A stretch of 25,976 nucleotides of DNA from a virus (Duplodnaviria > Heunggongvirae > Uroviricota > Caudoviricetes): positions 1 to 25,976 of the IMG/VR virus record IMGVR_UViG_2529293141_000017, one strand, 5' to 3'. Position numbers and translations under genes: made by a program. How positions within the stretch are numbered: the stretch's first letter is position 1; each line of letters opens with the position of its first letter. Under the pieces are notes generated by a model that made no database searches, had not been told where the DNA came from, and saw only the letters and a list, made by a program, of their open reading frames with translations. Shown here piece by piece: positions 919 to 25,976 of the stretch.

Positions 919-1116
919 ACATCGCGCCCCGGGATTGCCGGAAGGAGACAAAAACCGTACAGTATGCGCGGGTGCCTTTGGCTGATGGCCGGAGGGAACA
1001 CCTGAAGGCCGGAAAGACGAAGGCCCCGGACAAACATTCATGTTTAACCCGAGGCCTGACGTTCTTCCTTCAGCAAGAAGAAGGTTAGCGCCTCTCCGTA
1101 AAAGGAGCAAGCGTTT

Positions 1117-1251
1117 ATGTCGCAAAAACCGTTAAAAACCACCGTGATTTGTATCACGGTAGTGCTCATTATCTGGATCACCCACAGTTCACTGTGCGAG
1201 TTCCGGTTCCGGATAGCGGGGCGCGGAGATTGCGGCGTTCTTACAGTGTAA
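1117..1251 (+). CDS. Hok/Gef-family-like small membrane peptide (44 aa), possibly truncated
   Basis: Own translation MSQKPLKTTVICITVVLIIWITHSSLCEFRFRIAGRGDCGVLTV: an N-terminal hydrophobic helix followed by SLCEFRFR, matching the Hok/RelF core (KSLCEIRYR). AAGGAG sits 6 nt upstream of the ATG. The C-terminus diverges from Hok. Confidence 0.3.
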   Translation: MSQKPLKTTVICITVVLIIWITHSSLCEFRFRIAGRGDCGVLTV

Positions 1252-8994: not shown

Positions 8995-9195
8995 GTTAAG
9001 CATCCACAGGCTGGTATCTGCAACCGATTATAACGGATGCTTAACGTAATGCGTGAAGTATGGACATATTTTATCAATTAGTGTTTTTTGCCGTTTCATA
9101 ATGTTTCAGGTTGTGCATTATGTTTTTGATTATAAACAGATTTGTGATTTTTCTTGTTCCAGCTTGTTTCACGTTGTAGCCCTTTGTGCAACGAT

Positions 9196-9221
9196 CGGTG
9201 TAGTTAATGGTGTAGTTAATT
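9196..9221. repeat. Candidate attL core (CGGTGTAGTTAATGGTGTAGTTAATT)
   Basis: Direct repeat of 24410-24435; lies immediately 5' of the int start. Confidence 0.55.
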
Positions 9222-10472: not shown

Positions 10473-10846
10473 TTTTTTTCGTGTTTTTTCAGTATGCGCA
10501 TACTGGATAAGTGCACAGATACAACGTGAAACAATGTGCAATAACGTGACACAATCACGAACAAGAGGCCAAAAAGAATACAGATTTATAAGTTACTGAT
10601 TTTTAATGCTCAGCTGGTTTTTTATACATTAGTGAATTACGCGTTAAAGCGTGCGAAAAAAGGCATAAAACAAGATTTTATGCCTTTGTATTAACATGAA
10701 TTTAAATGATTTTATCCTGATTATTCCTCTTTCTGTAAACCATGCGACACCAACATTTGCCAACTCTGAATCATCCTGACACAATCAGACACATCCCAAC
10801 GCAATAGAACACGAAATAACTCTTTAAGAAACGAAAGGGGGCAATA

Positions 10847-11035
10847 GTGTTAAGCACTGATCGGTTTATACGTGAAAAAGAATGCGAAAAGCTAACAGGC
10901 CTTAGCCGCTCATGCCGCTACCGCCTGGAAAAGGCCGGACAATTCCCATCACGTCGTAAACTTGGCGGGCGTTCTGTTGGCTGGTCTTTATCTGAGGTTT
11001 TGGCCTGGAAGGATAGCTGCAAGGCAGTTCACTAA
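10847..11035 (+). CDS. alpA: AlpA-family (MerR/Xis-like) transcriptional regulator
   Basis: 62 aa with LTGLSRS..YRL...FP..RKLGGRSVGW, matching the AlpA pattern. GTG start with an AAGGGGG Shine-Dalgarno. Confidence 0.75.
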   Translation: MLSTDRFIREKECEKLTGLSRSCRYRLEKAGQFPSRRKLGGRSVGWSLSEVLAWKDSCKAVH

Positions 11036-11215
11036 AAAGACTGGCGGCACACAGCCACCACCAATCCATTATTGACCGATACCGGGATCTCGGTATCGGG
11101 AATAAACGCCATAATACTGAGGTATAACCATGATGAAATATACGCCCGTACAGGGGCGGGGATTCGTTCGCCCTGGTGAATCTGAAAAGCCATGCTATAG
11201 GGTATTTTCAGGCAT

Positions 11216-11243
11216 AAAAAAAGCGGTCCCGATATGGAACCGC
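11216..11243 (-). terminator. Rho-independent terminator for the minus-strand repressor cassette
   Basis: On the minus strand: GGCGGTTCC atatc GGGACCGC followed by T7. Confidence 0.45.
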
Positions 11244-11311
11244 CTTTCTGAACAATTAACCCGCTGCGCCGTATGTGTCAACAATCATAAGCCCGAACAT
11301 GATAACCGTGA

Positions 11312-11515
11312 TCAGGCTGGTGGGCAATTACCTTGCTTGTTGGGGCCGTATTGTGCTGCCATTTTCATCCGTTCAGAACGTGAATATTTTTTTAGAAACT
11401 CATCAAGGACAAAAGCGCATGGAGCGAATCTTTCTGATTCATGCTCGAGCGCCATATTTTCGTGCTCTCTGTTCGTTTTTTGCGATGGTGTATTGGTTGA
11501 TTCTTTATTGGTCAT
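11312..11515 (-). CDS. Hypothetical small protein (67 aa), second gene of repressor cassette A
   Basis: Paralogue of 12028-12255: shared MTN start and a conserved C-terminal F-x-L-D/E-x-F-x-K-Y-x-R motif. It is followed by a terminator. Confidence 0.45.
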   Translation of the reverse strand: MTNKESTNTPSQKTNREHENMALEHESERFAPCAFVLDEFLKKYSRSERMKMAAQYGPNKQGNCPPA

Positions 11516-11572
11516 TGTGTGTACCTGTAAAGCAATGCGCCGTAGTACCTCACGCCACGGCGCTGATAGTAA

Positions 11573-11752
11573 TTATTCTGATTCTTTGGCCTTGCGGCGC
11601 TGGCGGCGTTTGATCTCGCCTTTTGCTGCCGTAACTAGAAATCCGGCGGTACTTTCGCCAGGTTCTTTAAGTTGCTCAATATCGGTCATTACCTCATGCG
11701 GGATTCTGACCGTTGTCATTTGTGATTTTGCGTTCTTTGCACCTGTTGCCAT
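11573..11752 (-). CDS. Ribbon-helix-helix DNA-binding protein (59 aa), candidate island repressor, copy A
   Basis: Own translation MATGAKNAKSQMTTVRIPHEVMTDIEQLKEPGESTAGFLVTAAKGEIKRRQRRKAKESE, with a beta-strand / helix / helix pattern. AGGAGA Shine-Dalgarno 7 nt upstream. Divergent from a plus-strand promoter and operators. Confidence 0.55.
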   Translation of the reverse strand: MATGAKNAKSQMTTVRIPHEVMTDIEQLKEPGESTAGFLVTAAKGEIKRRQRRKAKESE

Positions 11753-11771
11753 TTCTGGTTCTCCTGATAAT

Positions 11772-11864
11772 CGGTGTATTTCAGTATACGCAAAAAAAAG
11801 ATAAAAAAAGTCTTGCGGTGTATTTCACCTGAATGTAGATTTAAAAATGAAGGTGAAATACACC
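11772..11864. promoter_or_regulatory. Operator/promoter region A: GGTGTATTTCACC in three copies, two forming a perfect 13-bp inverted pair
   Basis: 11817-11829 and 11852-11864 are exact reverse complements; a third direct copy lies at 11772-11783. The region sits between divergent genes. Confidence 0.45.
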
Positions 11865-11938
11865 CAAAACAACAACGCCCCGCAGTGATGGGAACACATA
11901 CGGGGCGTCTAACCAAACCATTAATTGAGGTAACGATT

Positions 11939-12010
11939 ATGGCTATAAAAGAGCATAGCTTACTCTTTATACACACACAAACGCCCCGGAAACGGAATAA
12001 TCCGTTTCAT
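11939..12010 (+). pseudogene. Truncated 5' remnant of an Icd-like gene (paralogue of 12685-12879)
   Basis: MAIKEHSLLFIHTQT... shares the M-x-x-x-H-x-x-x-L-x-HTQT start with 12685, then loses similarity where cassette B begins. Confidence 0.35.
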
Positions 12011-12027
12011 AGTTCGGTTTTGTGCAC

Positions 12028-12255
12028 TCATCCTGGCGGTCGGTTTTTGCCGGATTTAAGCCGCCGTGGGTATTTATCGACAAAATCTTCAAGGGCAAAT
12101 TTTTCTGGTGGCACTAAGCGCGGCGCTGGTGGTGGTATTTTTGTTCTGGTTAGTTCTTCCTCAACTCTGGCGCAGGCTTCTGACTGCCTTTGCCGGATGA
12201 TTTCATCATCTTGCGTTTGCGTGTCTTGTATTGGTGATAGTGTGTTGTTGGTCAT
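12028..12255 (-). CDS. Hypothetical small protein (75 aa), second gene of repressor cassette B
   Basis: Paralogue of 11312-11515, same position in the cassette. Confidence 0.5.
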   Translation of the reverse strand: MTNNTLSPIQDTQTQDDEIIRQRQSEACARVEEELTRTKIPPPAPRLVPPEKFALEDFVDKYPRRLKSGKNRPPG

Positions 12256-12312
12256 GATACTGCCCTGTAAAGCAATGCGCCGTAGTACCTCACACCACGG
12301 CGCTGATAGTGA

Positions 12313-12492
12313 TTATTCTGATTCTTTGGCCTTGCGACGCTGGCGGTATTCAACTTCCCGCTTTAATGCAGCTGTAACAAACTGCCCTGTACTTTCGCCG
12401 GGCATTTTTACCGCCTCAACATTGTTCATAACTTCATGTGGAACCCTTGCCGCAACTGTTTGTGATTTTGCGTTTACTGCTTTTGTCGCCAT
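12313..12492 (-). CDS. Ribbon-helix-helix DNA-binding protein (59 aa), candidate island repressor, copy B
   Basis: MATKAVNAKSQTVAARVPHEVMNNVEAVKMPGESTGQFVTAALKREV.... GAGGGG Shine-Dalgarno upstream. Divergent from the replication operon. Confidence 0.6.
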   Translation of the reverse strand: MATKAVNAKSQTVAARVPHEVMNNVEAVKMPGESTGQFVTAALKREVEYRQRRKAKESE

Positions 12493-12542
12493 GTTGAGCA
12501 CCCCTCATAAAAAACAAATGCAGTATGCAGGAAAAAAAACAA

Positions 12543-12594
12543 GTGTTCAACACTTGACGTGTTTAACACCTCGATTTAAATTGGTGTTCAACAC
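12543..12594. promoter_or_regulatory. Operator/promoter region B: three GTGTT(C/T)AACAC palindromes overlapping a TTGACG-N17-TAAATT promoter
   Basis: Palindromes at 12543, 12559 and 12584 bracket the -35 and -10 of the plus-strand promoter feeding 12685 onward. Confidence 0.5.
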
Positions 12595-12684
12595 CTTATT
12601 TAGGCAAGGTGTAGAAACGACGAAACCCCGCACTGTAGGAGCAGTAACGGGGCTTCTAACCAACAACGTAAACGAGGAGCCGTT

Positions 12685-12879
12685 ATGGTTGCCGTAAATC
12701 ATATACCACACCTTGTACACACACAAACGGCCTTTGTGTGGCGTTTTCTGGCACTGAGTGCCGGAGAATCTCAAATCATCCACGTAACCGCCTGGACGGA
12801 ACGCGAAGCGCGTAACCTTTGCCCGTCCGGTTGTGTTGCTGTATTTGCCGCCCGTATTCGCCAGGGGGTAGGCTTATGA
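12685..12879 (+). CDS. Small protein, possibly Icd-like (host cell division inhibitor family); first gene of the early operon
   Basis: 64 aa with a GAGGAG Shine-Dalgarno. The motif FVWRFLALS...TEREAR...FAARI resembles Icd-like proteins of P4-type elements, from memory only. Confidence 0.5.
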   Translation: MVAVNHIPHLVHTQTAFVWRFLALSAGESQIIHVTAWTEREARNLCPSGCVAVFAARIRQGVGL

Positions 12880-16907: not shown

Positions 16908-17173
16908 GAATATCAGAACCACACCATACAGCCGGAGCAATCCGGCTTTTTGTTATTTTTTGTAAATTATTTGTTCGTGGTTGTTCCACGTTGTTCACTG
17001 AGCGGATCGGCATATTTTACCCGAACTGAATCATGATTATTCTCGCCCGTGGTGCCAGGACGCTGGGGCCACTTTCCCGCCTGTTAATGTGCTCGCCAAT
17101 ATTCATTACCAGGCGGGAAAACGATCGGTGCGATTGCTGATTTCCTTATGAAAAACGGTTGAGTGTTTGCCGC

Positions 17174-24233: not shown

Positions 24234-24409
24234 AACCCACCAGCCTGATTAAATGTTAACCGGAAAAAAAATCCGGTAGCCCCGTTATGGGGATCCCCAT
24301 ATCGACATTAACGCCCCTCATGAATTGGTGCGCTTCCCCCTGGAAAGATTACCCGCCTGTATATTTCTTGTGTCTATTTGTTCCACGTTGTTTCATACAG
24401 TGCACCGAA

Positions 24410-24435
24410 CGGTGTAGTTAATGGTGTAGTCAATT
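24410..24435. repeat. Candidate attR core (CGGTGTAGTTAATGGTGTAGTCAATT)
   Basis: 25/26 identical to 9196-9221, in direct orientation. Confidence 0.55.
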
Positions 24436-24515
24436 TGCGATTTTTGGCACTTTTTCAATGATAATTGTTTAATTAAATCAATGACTTGACCTGGTGTGGT
24501 GATAAAAGGACATAT

Positions 24516-25976
24516 TTATTCATCTTTCGGCGCAGAATGCTGGCGACCAAAAATCACCTCCATCCGCGCACCGCCCAGCATGCTCTCTCCGGCGACGATT
24601 TTACCCTCATATTGCTCGGTGATTTCGCGGGCTACCGCCAGCCCTACACCTTGCCCAGGGCGTAAAGTATCAACCCGTTGACCACGGTCGAAAATGACCT
24701 CTCGCTTGCTTAATGGAATACCGGGGCCATCATCCTCGACCACAATATAGAGATGCTCGTCGGTTTGCCTTGCAGAAATTTCGACAAACTCGAGGCAATA
24801 TTTACAGGCATTATCCAGCACGTTGCCCATCACCTCGACAAAATCGTTCTGCTCACCGACAAAGCTGATCTCTGGCGAAATATCGAGAGAGATATTGACC
24901 CCTTTGCGTTGATACACTTTGTTCAGCGCTGAGGTGAGATTGTCCAGCAGTGGGGCGACCGGATGCAGCTCGCGGCTGAGCAATGTCCCGCCGCGCATAC
25001 TGGCACGATGCAGGTAGTAGCCAATTTGCTGTGAAATGCGGCTGATTTGCTCCAGCATTACCGGCTCAGCATCACTGACGCTCATCTTTTCACTACGCAG
25101 AGAACGCAGCGTACTTTGCAGCACCGCCAGTGGCGTTTTCAGACTATGGGTCAGGTCGGTGAGCGTCGTACGGTATTTGTCGTAACGTTCGCGTTCACTT
25201 TTTAACAATCGGTTCAGGTTTCGTACCAGACTGGTCAGTTCTCGCGTTGTGGCTGGATTGAGCAATTCGCGGTTATGTTCTTCCAGTTCGCGGACTTCTT
25301 TTGCCAGGGCTTCGATGGGGCGTAAACTCCACCAGGCGGCGACCCACAGCAGCGGGATCACTAACAGCAGATTGGCTGAGAGCACATAGATAAACCAGCT
25401 CCAGACCATATAGGAACTTTTTAGCTCCACCGGAATGGTATCCACCACCACAATGGTTAATTTTGGCATCCGCGATGTTGCCGGGTAGACGTTTACTGCC
25501 ACCGAGTGGGTCATCTCCGCGTCGTCATCATCTTCCCGCACTTCCTGCAACTGTTGCTGTATCGAATGATCTCCACTCAGCAAGAGGCTGGTATCGTTAA
25601 CATCCGCTTCAATTTCATGAAAACCATTCGATTTCAGCCAGTCAGGCTGGATCATCTTCATCAGCCAGGGCACGTCACGTTGCGCCCATAAAAGCTGCCC
25701 GTTCTCATCATAAATTAGCGTCATGGTGGGGCTTTGCTTGTCGATATTTTCGGGTAACTCGACATGCAACTTATTGTTTTCCCACTTCGCAAGGGTATAG
25801 AACAGATTGCTCTCGCCACGTAACAGCCGAAACGTAGTTTTATCGAAACTGACGCTATAACCGATCAGCGCGACCATTCCGTAGGCAAGCGAAAGCACCA
25901 GTACTACCGCTGCCGTTGCCAACAGAAAACGTACCCGCAGCGAGAGCGGGAAAAAAAGACGCAGTAATTTTTTCAT
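24516..25976 (-). CDS. phoQ: Sensor histidine kinase PhoQ
   Basis: 486 aa starting [25 protein letters not shown]..., with a periplasmic sensor region, HAMP and a HisKA/ATPase core; the start lies at the window edge. Confidence 0.96.

Follow-up and report, generated by a model that had tools for sequence, protein, structure and literature searches.

We propose that the 374-bp gap between int and alpA, which is left without any RefSeq annotation in a near-identical genome, is probably a cis-regulatory region that serves alpA, the gene acting as master switch in a capsid-forming phage-inducible chromosomal island, and that it brings together an insulating terminator, a promoter of its own and a set of boxes shared with the att sites and the late operon. 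The window, that is the whole 25,976-nt stretch of DNA analysed here, is E. coli chromosome carrying such an island between roxA and phoQ. In the near-identical annotated genome, the host genes potB, potA, pepT and roxA precede the island, which begins with the integrase gene and the gene of a 62-aa helix-turn-helix protein, continues with YlcI/YnfO genes, ash/icd-like genes and the genes for the RepA helicase, SSB and PerC, and ends with the late genes for capsid, protease, portal, head-closure, connector, HNH, TerS and TerL, after which phoQ follows. This is the layout of a PICI, with int and alpA co-oriented at the left end of the island, replication and packaging genes, and flanking att repeats. 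By its gene content, the island is of the same type as EcCIEDL933, which is also called O-island 51 (OI-51) or CP-933C, and induction of EcCIEDL933 by HK106 and HK446 requires alpA. The 62-aa alpA product matches PF05930 (E=5e-18) and has 8c3t ("AlpA family protein", E=2.6e-6) as its nearest match in the PDB, so that a small winged-helix protein of the RDF family is encoded within the island itself. The helper-phage inducer of alpA in Gram-negative phage-inducible islands is still unknown (PMC6092414, PMC10803314), and how helper phages turn on alpA in these islands is an open question. What had been an unannotated gap now offers a shortlist of conserved elements that can be mutated, namely a putative terminator, a candidate promoter, two box arrays, an IHF-like site and a LexA-like 20-mer (Table 1).

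A first-pass annotation of this DNA had described an AT-rich int-alpA gap of about 370 bp that could hold the alpA promoter and operators, or else an antisense small RNA. The gap is real and, at 374 bp from the int stop codon to the alpA start codon, has the size given there; its GC content is 0.34-0.40. Of 5426 complete E. coli genomes, 878 (~16%) carry a homologous gap. For comparison we used 12 annotated loci, which span five integration sites (roxA, tqsA, allE, comM/yifB and abgR), together with 68 IMG/VR loci, and these yielded 57 distinct gap sequences of 68-99% identity. EcCICFT073, the island of CFT073, occupies the same roxA-phoQ site as the island in the window; its gap is 69% identical to the window gap over the full length and 99.7% identical to that of one locus in the comparison set. 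The promoter activity of this relative has been measured: a fusion of the EcCICFT073 alpA promoter is activated by AlpA and the helper phages lambda and phi80, and not by mitomycin C alone (PMC6092414), and an EcCIMP1 reporter carrying the fragment from -449 to +50 behaves in the same way. Because the two gaps are homologous and the islands share their site, we take these experiments to bear directly on the gap in the window. The suggestion that the gap holds the alpA promoter and operators is supported by this homology, by a sigma-70 promoter found in 57 of 57 variants and by conserved candidate protein-binding sites. We rejected a small protein gene within the gap, as no ORF is kept across the gap lineages. 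Searches that reached further afield gave little: no DNA match to the gap was found in the phage collection, scanning the species genomes with the one AlpA protein yielded three loci only, and a distant int-gap-alpA locus (L015), examined for analogous motifs, gave no clear outcome either way.

Table 1. Features of the int-alpA gap and of the related sites elsewhere in the island (window coordinates).
Feature	Position	Strand	Remarks
attL core GGACATATTT	9062..9071		alignment with the empty K-12 roxA-phoQ site; attR copy at 24508-24517
Box array, left (P') att arm	9153..9192	-	conserved in islands at five integration sites
Doubled motif GGTGTAGTTAAT x2, putative integrase arm-type sites	9197..9220	+	left arm
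int-alpA gap, probable alpA control region	10473..10846		int TAA 10470-10472; alpA GTG 10847
Perfect 16-bp palindrome CAGTATGCGCATACTG, lineage-specific	10490..10505		type I gaps only
LexA-like site A, CTG-N10-CAG, TACTGGATAAGTGCACAGAT	10501..10520		type I gaps only; overlaps the palindrome
Distal array, five 10-bp-phased boxes, putative AlpA sites	10516..10565	+	position-weight-matrix clusters
IHF-like site AATCAGTAACTTA, matches WATCARNNNNTTR	10589..10601	-	conserved position
Near-invariant LexA-box-like 20-mer, minus strand TAATGTATAAAAAACCAGCT	10612..10631	-	best LexA-like site in 57/57 variants
Intrinsic-terminator-like hairpin, possibly bidirectional (symmetric)	10656..10692	+	A6, arms 10659-10670/10676-10687, then TTTGTATT
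Candidate alpA promoter, -35 TTGCCA 10757-10762, 17-bp spacer, TGn and -10 CACAAT 10777-10785	10757..10785	+	promoter scan; predicted start ~10792
Proximal boxes CTGACACAAT and CAGACACATC over the -10 and start region	10776..10795	+	fixed offset
End of alpA leader: near-invariant ACTCTTTAAGAAA 10819-10831, Shine-Dalgarno AAGGGGG 10835-10841, GTG 10847	10819..10849	+	variant alignment
Box array after the early-operon terminator, upstream of the capsid operon	16970..16999	-	equivalent place in islands L086 and L087
Box array, right (P) att arm	24367..24396	-	14-mer and position-weight-matrix clusters
Doubled motif GGTGTAGTTAAT/GGTGTAGTCAAT	24411..24434	+	right arm

The candidate alpA promoter lies in the right-hand third of the gap. 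In a rough position-weight-matrix scan, TTGCCA-17-[C/A]ACAAT was present in 57 of 57 variants, across three sequence types distinguished by 10-bp indels to the left or right of the -10 element. The same scan of the 57 variants returned no other plus-strand promoter, and no minus-strand promoter of any kind, that is conserved across lineages. We suggest that alpA is transcribed from this sigma-70 promoter of its own (TTGCCA-17-TGnCACAAT), which would give the mRNA a leader of ~55 nt.

Upstream of the promoter lies a hairpin with a minus-strand T-run, just as the first-pass annotation had described it. It has 12-bp arms and a loop of 5, and the A6 that precedes it on the plus strand is the T6 that follows it on the minus strand. 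Perfect stems of at least 11 bp are expected 0.03 times per window under the null; the fold z-score is -4.9 on the plus strand and -5.3 on the minus strand, and none of 200 shuffled sequences folded as well. The hairpin is present in all 57 gap variants, in the form of 26 distinct hairpin sequences. Pairs were counted over these 26 with a register-aware script, since MAFFT columns put two hairpin types 1 nt out of register, and the pair cells comprise 274 Watson-Crick pairs, 21 that are G·U on the plus strand only, 8 that are G·U on the minus strand only, and 9 that pair on neither. One pair has undergone a double change from A-T to G-C, with G·T intermediates present among the variants, and this change, together with the excess of plus-strand G·U pairs, points to pairing under RNA-level selection. 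In addition, several hairpin variants fold better on the plus strand (-12.5 vs -8.0 and -11.3 vs -4.3 kcal/mol). The 12-bp stem has a folding energy of -12.8 kcal/mol; when the 9-bp core stem is taken instead, the tails read UUUGUAUU on the plus strand and UUUUUUCG on the minus strand. The stem contains only 3 G-C pairs, the plus-strand tail UUUGUAUU is weaker than the U6 tail of the minus strand, and a simple terminator scan against the consensus did not flag the hairpin. The 3' end of int showed no RNA structure in the fold test. Because the compensatory and G·U changes favour the plus strand, we read the hairpin as a putative plus-strand intrinsic terminator that would shield alpA from int transcription and whose symmetry may let it act leftward too. 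In the PICMI satellite family int is constitutive and alpA is induced (PMC10803314), and such a regime would create the need to insulate alpA.

The GTGACACAATCA repeats that had been noticed in the gap are part of larger arrays of boxes that follow each other at 10-bp intervals and have the consensus GTGRAACAAY. The original observation holds for the gap, where TGACACAATCA has exactly two copies in the 26-kb window, at 10547 and 10777, and the boxes go beyond it, as they belong to a 10-bp-phased set that extends across the island. All 57 gaps carry 5-7 boxes with a spacing of 10 +/- 1 bp, located 260-355 bp upstream of alpA, which in a few variants read as adjacent shorter runs; the boxes are thus direct repeats one helical turn apart. 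Moreover, each of the three promoter types has a strong box (9.3-9.8 bits) at a constant offset of +19 from the -35 element and a weaker box 10 bp beyond it. A box over the -10 and start region is unusual for a protein reported to activate the same promoter, and this position sits uneasily with our main model. The 14-mer ACAACGTGRAACAA occurs four times in the window, at 9164 (-), 10521 (+), 16981 (-) and 24378 (-), where 0.01 copies are expected. Phased clusters were likewise confined in the window to the gap, the two att arms and the region before the capsid operon, with 0.1 per window in the shuffled null. Two other capsid-forming islands (L086 and L087) have clusters at the same four places and a few extra minimal three-box runs, and EcCICFT073 has the two att arrays and the gap array and lacks the array at the capsid operon. 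The box matrix was trained on the arrays of the window itself, and the independent support comes from the exact 14-mer count and from the recurrence of the same four positions in related islands. Decisive for the arrays were this exact count and the clusters of phased boxes seen with the position-weight matrix; little enrichment emerged when short motifs were counted by strict regular expressions, local alignment of the gap with the att arms was borderline only, and Tandem Repeats Finder did not detect the arrays. We also considered the gap array as a piece of attP and rejected this, as the core (9062-9071) is 1.4 kb away.

In both att arms the box array stands beside the doubled GGTGTAGTTAAT motif. 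In each arm, the motif GGTGTAGTYAMT varies along with the N-terminal allele of Int, a comparison that comprises two alleles only: islands with the alternative Int N-terminal (arm-binding) allele have GGTGTAGTCACT instead, both in the near arm and in the far arm 15 kb off. Since the doubled motif tracks the Int N-terminal allele at both arms, we take it to be the putative arm site of the integrase. The boxes are constant across islands with either Int allele, and so is AlpA, with at least 89% identity. Because the boxes are constant as AlpA is, and because their pattern is that of a dual excisionase and regulator such as 186 Apl, we infer that the boxes bind AlpA. The sites of RDF proteins are direct repeats one helical turn apart that are also found at promoters, as described for 186 Apl (PMC7498355) and RdfS (PMC11963761). 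Furthermore, an AlpA-family protein binds both att arms of ROD21 (PMC8844411), and the AlpA protein of PICMI acts as an excisionase (PMC10803314).

Signals from the host or the helper phage may enter at two further conserved sites, which lie downstream of the distal boxes and upstream of the hairpin. One of these sites fits the IHF consensus WATCARNNNNTTR; 55 of the 57 variants have a single match to it, and its place in the alignment is the same in each. Across these variants the consensus positions are kept and the N4 stretch varies, the pattern expected of an IHF site, and we refer to it as IHF-like. The distal array is ~200 bp from the promoter, and a bend at the IHF-like site has no obvious way to join the two, a geometry that is less easily accommodated by our main model. 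The other site is a near-invariant 20-mer resembling a LexA box, with a heterology index (HI) of 6.7 in the window, where it is the best such site, and of 5.8-10.4 over the 57 variants; an HI of 6.7 or lower is expected 0.017 times per shuffled window, by a reconstructed scoring matrix. The first CTG of the 20-mer is ATG or GTG in 57 of 57 variants. Site A, scored with the same reconstructed matrix, has an HI of 9-12, with 11-12 for the site at 10501-10520, and ~1.8 sites as good are expected per shuffled window; among the type I variants its CTG and CAG are kept and the 10 nt between them vary. By analogy, the failure of DNA damage alone to induce EcCICFT073 argues against LexA as the sole control of alpA.

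The hairpin could be put to a different use if alpA were transcribed from a promoter upstream of it, and TTTAAT-17-TACAYT (-10 at 10625-10630) is the candidate for such a promoter. In that case the hairpin would act as a terminator within the leader, with read-through or antitermination turning alpA on, or with a plus-strand RNA of ~55 nt as the product. The geometry would suit an activator-dependent promoter, as the box array (about -72 to -121) and the IHF-like site precede the -35 and the LexA-like block lies over the -10 in the manner of an operator; TACAYT is found in all variants, inside the near-invariant block, and the G·U changes favour a plus-strand RNA hairpin. We nevertheless consider this arrangement quite unlikely. 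Its -35 is poor and is not conserved in type II gaps, including that of EcCICFT073, so that the promoter scores 7.0 at most and passes in 29 of 57 variants, while the better promoter downstream of the hairpin is kept in all of them, and the gap matches no Rfam family: with Rfam 15, nothing reached the gathering threshold, the only hit, BSnc120, scoring 27.3 bits where the gathering score is 114. This last result also weighs against the antisense small RNA that had been suggested earlier, a putative minus-strand transcript with its start in the stretch from alpA to the hairpin and its end at the hairpin and T6. Such an RNA would have the better tail, with UUUUUU directly after the hairpin and the A6/T6 run conserved, and the fold z-score of -5.3 is found on its strand. 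However, the only promoter-like site available to it, TTTACA-19-TAAAAT, has a poor 19-bp spacer, is present in 37 of 57 variants and would produce an RNA of ~45 nt, and the hairpin variants are mostly mismatched on the minus strand. With no conserved minus-strand promoter, no Rfam family at threshold and hairpin variants that pair better on the plus strand (21 vs 8), the suggestion is not supported, and we regard a minus-strand RNA as very improbable. Known small RNAs were rejected as well, as Esr41 sits in another island and Rfam is without a match.

The ligand of the boxes and the meaning of the 20-mer invite alternatives of their own. The boxes might be additional arm-type sites of the integrase, or be recognised by some other protein of the island or the host; or else, as A-rich tracts in helical phase, they might serve to bend the DNA or to nucleate silencing by H-NS. 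They do adjoin the doubled Int motif in both arms, their units are A-rich and helically phased in a gap of low GC content, and for a comparable doubled att motif of HE-PICIs the choice between Int, AlpA and another protein has been left open (PMC10111431). Against this, what changes with the Int N-terminal allele in the two arms is a different motif and not the boxes, the sequence-specific conservation, with ACAACGTGRAACAA exact at four places, exceeds what bending needs, and the precedent of the RDF family suits direct repeats at one-turn intervals; we therefore think it unlikely that the boxes belong to something other than AlpA. A further possibility, which can coexist with our main model, is that the 20-mer, together with site A in type I gaps, is a real LexA operator, in which case DNA damage would be one of two keys and a helper factor the other. 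The packaging operon of staphylococcal islands is under LexA control, and the 20-mer is the best LexA-like site both in the window and in every variant, at the low chance expectation given above, and resembles the uvrB operator, which we take to be its nearest known LexA operator. On the other hand, one essential CTG is replaced in every variant, the scoring matrix is a reconstruction, the EcCICFT073 and EcCIMP1 reporters are not induced by mitomycin C in the absence of a helper, and the 20-mer does not overlap the conserved promoter, and on balance we hold an SOS input of this kind to be a minor possibility. A bolder combination would make the gap a third "arm-like" nucleoprotein site, composed of AlpA boxes and IHF, that couples assembly of the excision complex physically and kinetically to the alpA switch, with the 20-mer as a real operator for LexA or a helper-phage protein and with alpA firing only if DNA damage and a helper factor coincide. 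We put this forward as a speculation that is rather unlikely to be correct; if it were true, it would put a name to the site, sought for a long time, at which the helper signal enters in Gram-negative phage-inducible islands.

Under our preferred reading, in which the gap is the control region of alpA with its own terminator and promoter, int would be transcribed rightward from the left att arm, and int transcripts or other rightward transcripts would end at the hairpin (10659-10687), with the consequence that alpA would not be co-expressed with int. The five distal boxes are 230-280 bp upstream of the promoter, whose -10 and start carry one or two more, and the predicted ligand of both sets is AlpA, a 62-aa winged-helix protein of the Xis/Vis-like kind. 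When bound to its boxes, AlpA may promote excision, feed back on its own promoter and turn the late operon on, in the manner of Apl, Cox, Vis and RdfS. The positive sign of this feedback and the dependence of alpA on helper phages are taken from the experiments on the EcCICFT073 gap and not from the sequence of the window. The model predicts that excision, self-regulation and late-gene expression are tied together by AlpA through one set of boxes.

The closest known system is EcCICFT073 (Fillol-Salom et al., 2018; PMC6092414), which resembles the island in the window in its roxA-phoQ site, its int-then-alpA layout and the alignment of its gap along the whole length, and whose gap shares the boxes, the IHF-like site, the 20-mer block, the hairpin and the TTGCCA promoter. 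Unlike EcCICFT073, the island in the window is capsid-forming and carries an additional, fourth box array ahead of the capsid operon, and its gap is of type I rather than type II, with the palindrome present and one box fewer. The published EcCICFT073-type literature, as far as it was consulted, does not describe the cis-elements of the gap. By analogy, the architecture is that of the known dual excisionase/regulator type, here found among phage satellites of an already known family. The dual-purpose excisionase/regulators of this type include P2 Cox and P4 Vis. Similar to what is described for 186 Apl (PMC7498355) and RdfS (PMC11963761), a small winged-helix protein is encoded beside int and the sites are direct repeats of one turn, and as with the Apl and RdfS sites, the boxes in the window, predicted to be AlpA sites, lie at att and also at regulatory promoters, among them that of alpA itself. 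There are also differences: Apl and Cox act mainly as repressors, whereas AlpA reportedly activates the promoter of its own gene, and the boxes in the window are found in both att arms and in two regulatory gaps. The doubled attP motif of HE-PICIs (PMC10111431) is comparable to the doubled motif described here in that a tandem 12-bp motif occurs once per att arm at fixed distances from the core. It differs in sequence (TGTATTGC there, GGTGTAGTTAAT here), and the motif in our islands covaries with the Int N-terminal allele and is absent from the gap. With the AlpA protein of Pseudomonas aeruginosa (PMC7969949, PMC9371919) the system in the window shares no more than its name and the broad concept of a switch controlled by a terminator. 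P. aeruginosa AlpA has DNA-contact residues up to 142 and a 21Q-like fold, its binding element lies between -35 and -10, and the terminator is downstream; the protein in the window, in contrast, is 62 aa long and belongs to PF05930, and the hairpin is upstream of the conserved promoter. An antitermination switch of the Q-like or P. aeruginosa AlpA kind was rejected on these grounds, the 62-aa PF05930 protein being unrelated and the hairpin standing before the promoter.

Finally, the gap contains the 16-bp palindrome that the first-pass annotation had reported at 10486-10501. The palindrome is perfect as stated, but its position is 10490-10505, 4 bases further to the right, and it is not general among such gaps, being confined to those of type I. 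Under a first-order Markov null, 26 kb should contain 0.385 perfect 16-bp palindromes, and the window has two, the second at 24286; by itself, the palindrome is weak evidence, and its RNA fold z-score is only -1.9. Among the exact copies in IMG/VR, 39 of 41 stand in the same island context, and we rejected the idea of a common phage operator, given that the copies are found almost only there. In type II gaps, including that of EcCICFT073, further boxes occupy the position of the palindrome. We regard the 16-bp element as a lineage-specific addition.

Both att arms of the island carry a doubled 12-bp motif, GGTGTAGTTAAT, which we also examined in two other capsid-forming islands (L086 and L087). 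Across this island comparison, GGTGTAGTCACT replaces GGTGTAGTTAAT in islands with the other integrase N-terminal allele, and it does so alike in both arms. The doubled motifs are likely integrase arm-type sites, and an analogous doubled motif has been reported for helper-embedded PICIs (PMC10111431). The right arm additionally contains a second perfect 16-bp palindrome.

The EcCICFT073 island of strain CFT073 (L088, 7930-19200) has its integrase type, att site, alpA and int-alpA gap in common with the capsid-forming islands, whereas the replication and packaging modules of this classical island differ from theirs. This pattern suggests that modules have been exchanged downstream of a shared zone for integration and regulation. 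In the window, the 10-bp-phased boxes also recur further along the capsid-forming island: three of them, in inverted orientation, directly follow the strong terminator that closes the early operon, with the capsid gene approximately 170-240 bp further on, and a 25-nt stretch of this region (within 16928-17003) recurs unchanged in a further island, L004, as part of its gap array.

Features located in the window.
Feature	Position	Strand	Remarks
sok antitoxin RNA	970-1128	+	Rfam RF01794, 62.9 bits
Doubled 12-bp motif GGTGTAGTTAAT	9197-9220 and 24411-24434		both att arms
Possible small hairpin, UAGUGU/GCACUG	about 10842-10866		around alpA GUG start
Terminator-like hairpin	11038-11067	flagged on minus	immediately 3' of alpA stop codon
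125-nt direct repeat, 82% identical	11505-11629 and 12245-12369		ORF-poor zone
Strong terminator, AGCCGGAGCAATCCGGCT then T-run	within 16928-17003	+	closes early operon
Second perfect 16-bp palindrome TATGGGGATCCCCATA	24286-24301		right att arm, ~210 bp off core

In the possible hairpin at the alpA start codon, two pairs are altered on both sides between gap lineages, via synonymous codon positions, and in two recombinant variants one of these pairs no longer forms. The terminator-like hairpin behind the stop codon would keep convergent YlcI/YnfO transcripts from entering alpA antisense. After alpA, the ORF-poor zone (11040-12800) holds two YlcI/YnfO-family genes on the minus strand, divergent from the ash/icd/replication operon, a position that would suit a repressor. 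P4-like immunity RNAs have been reported in the literature for the corresponding zone of related islands, and Rfam found none in this zone of the window.

In a distant locus from an alphaproteobacterial metagenome contig (L015, 1-2700), the order is likewise int, a gap of approximately 550 bp and alpA; upstream of int there is a GGGAATAT motif, of which an inverted copy appears in the gap, a hint that the same logic applies there with different boxes. Outside the island, the sok RNA sits amid prophage tail-fibre remnants upstream of potB and is part of a hok/sok module of the neighbouring prophage remnant.
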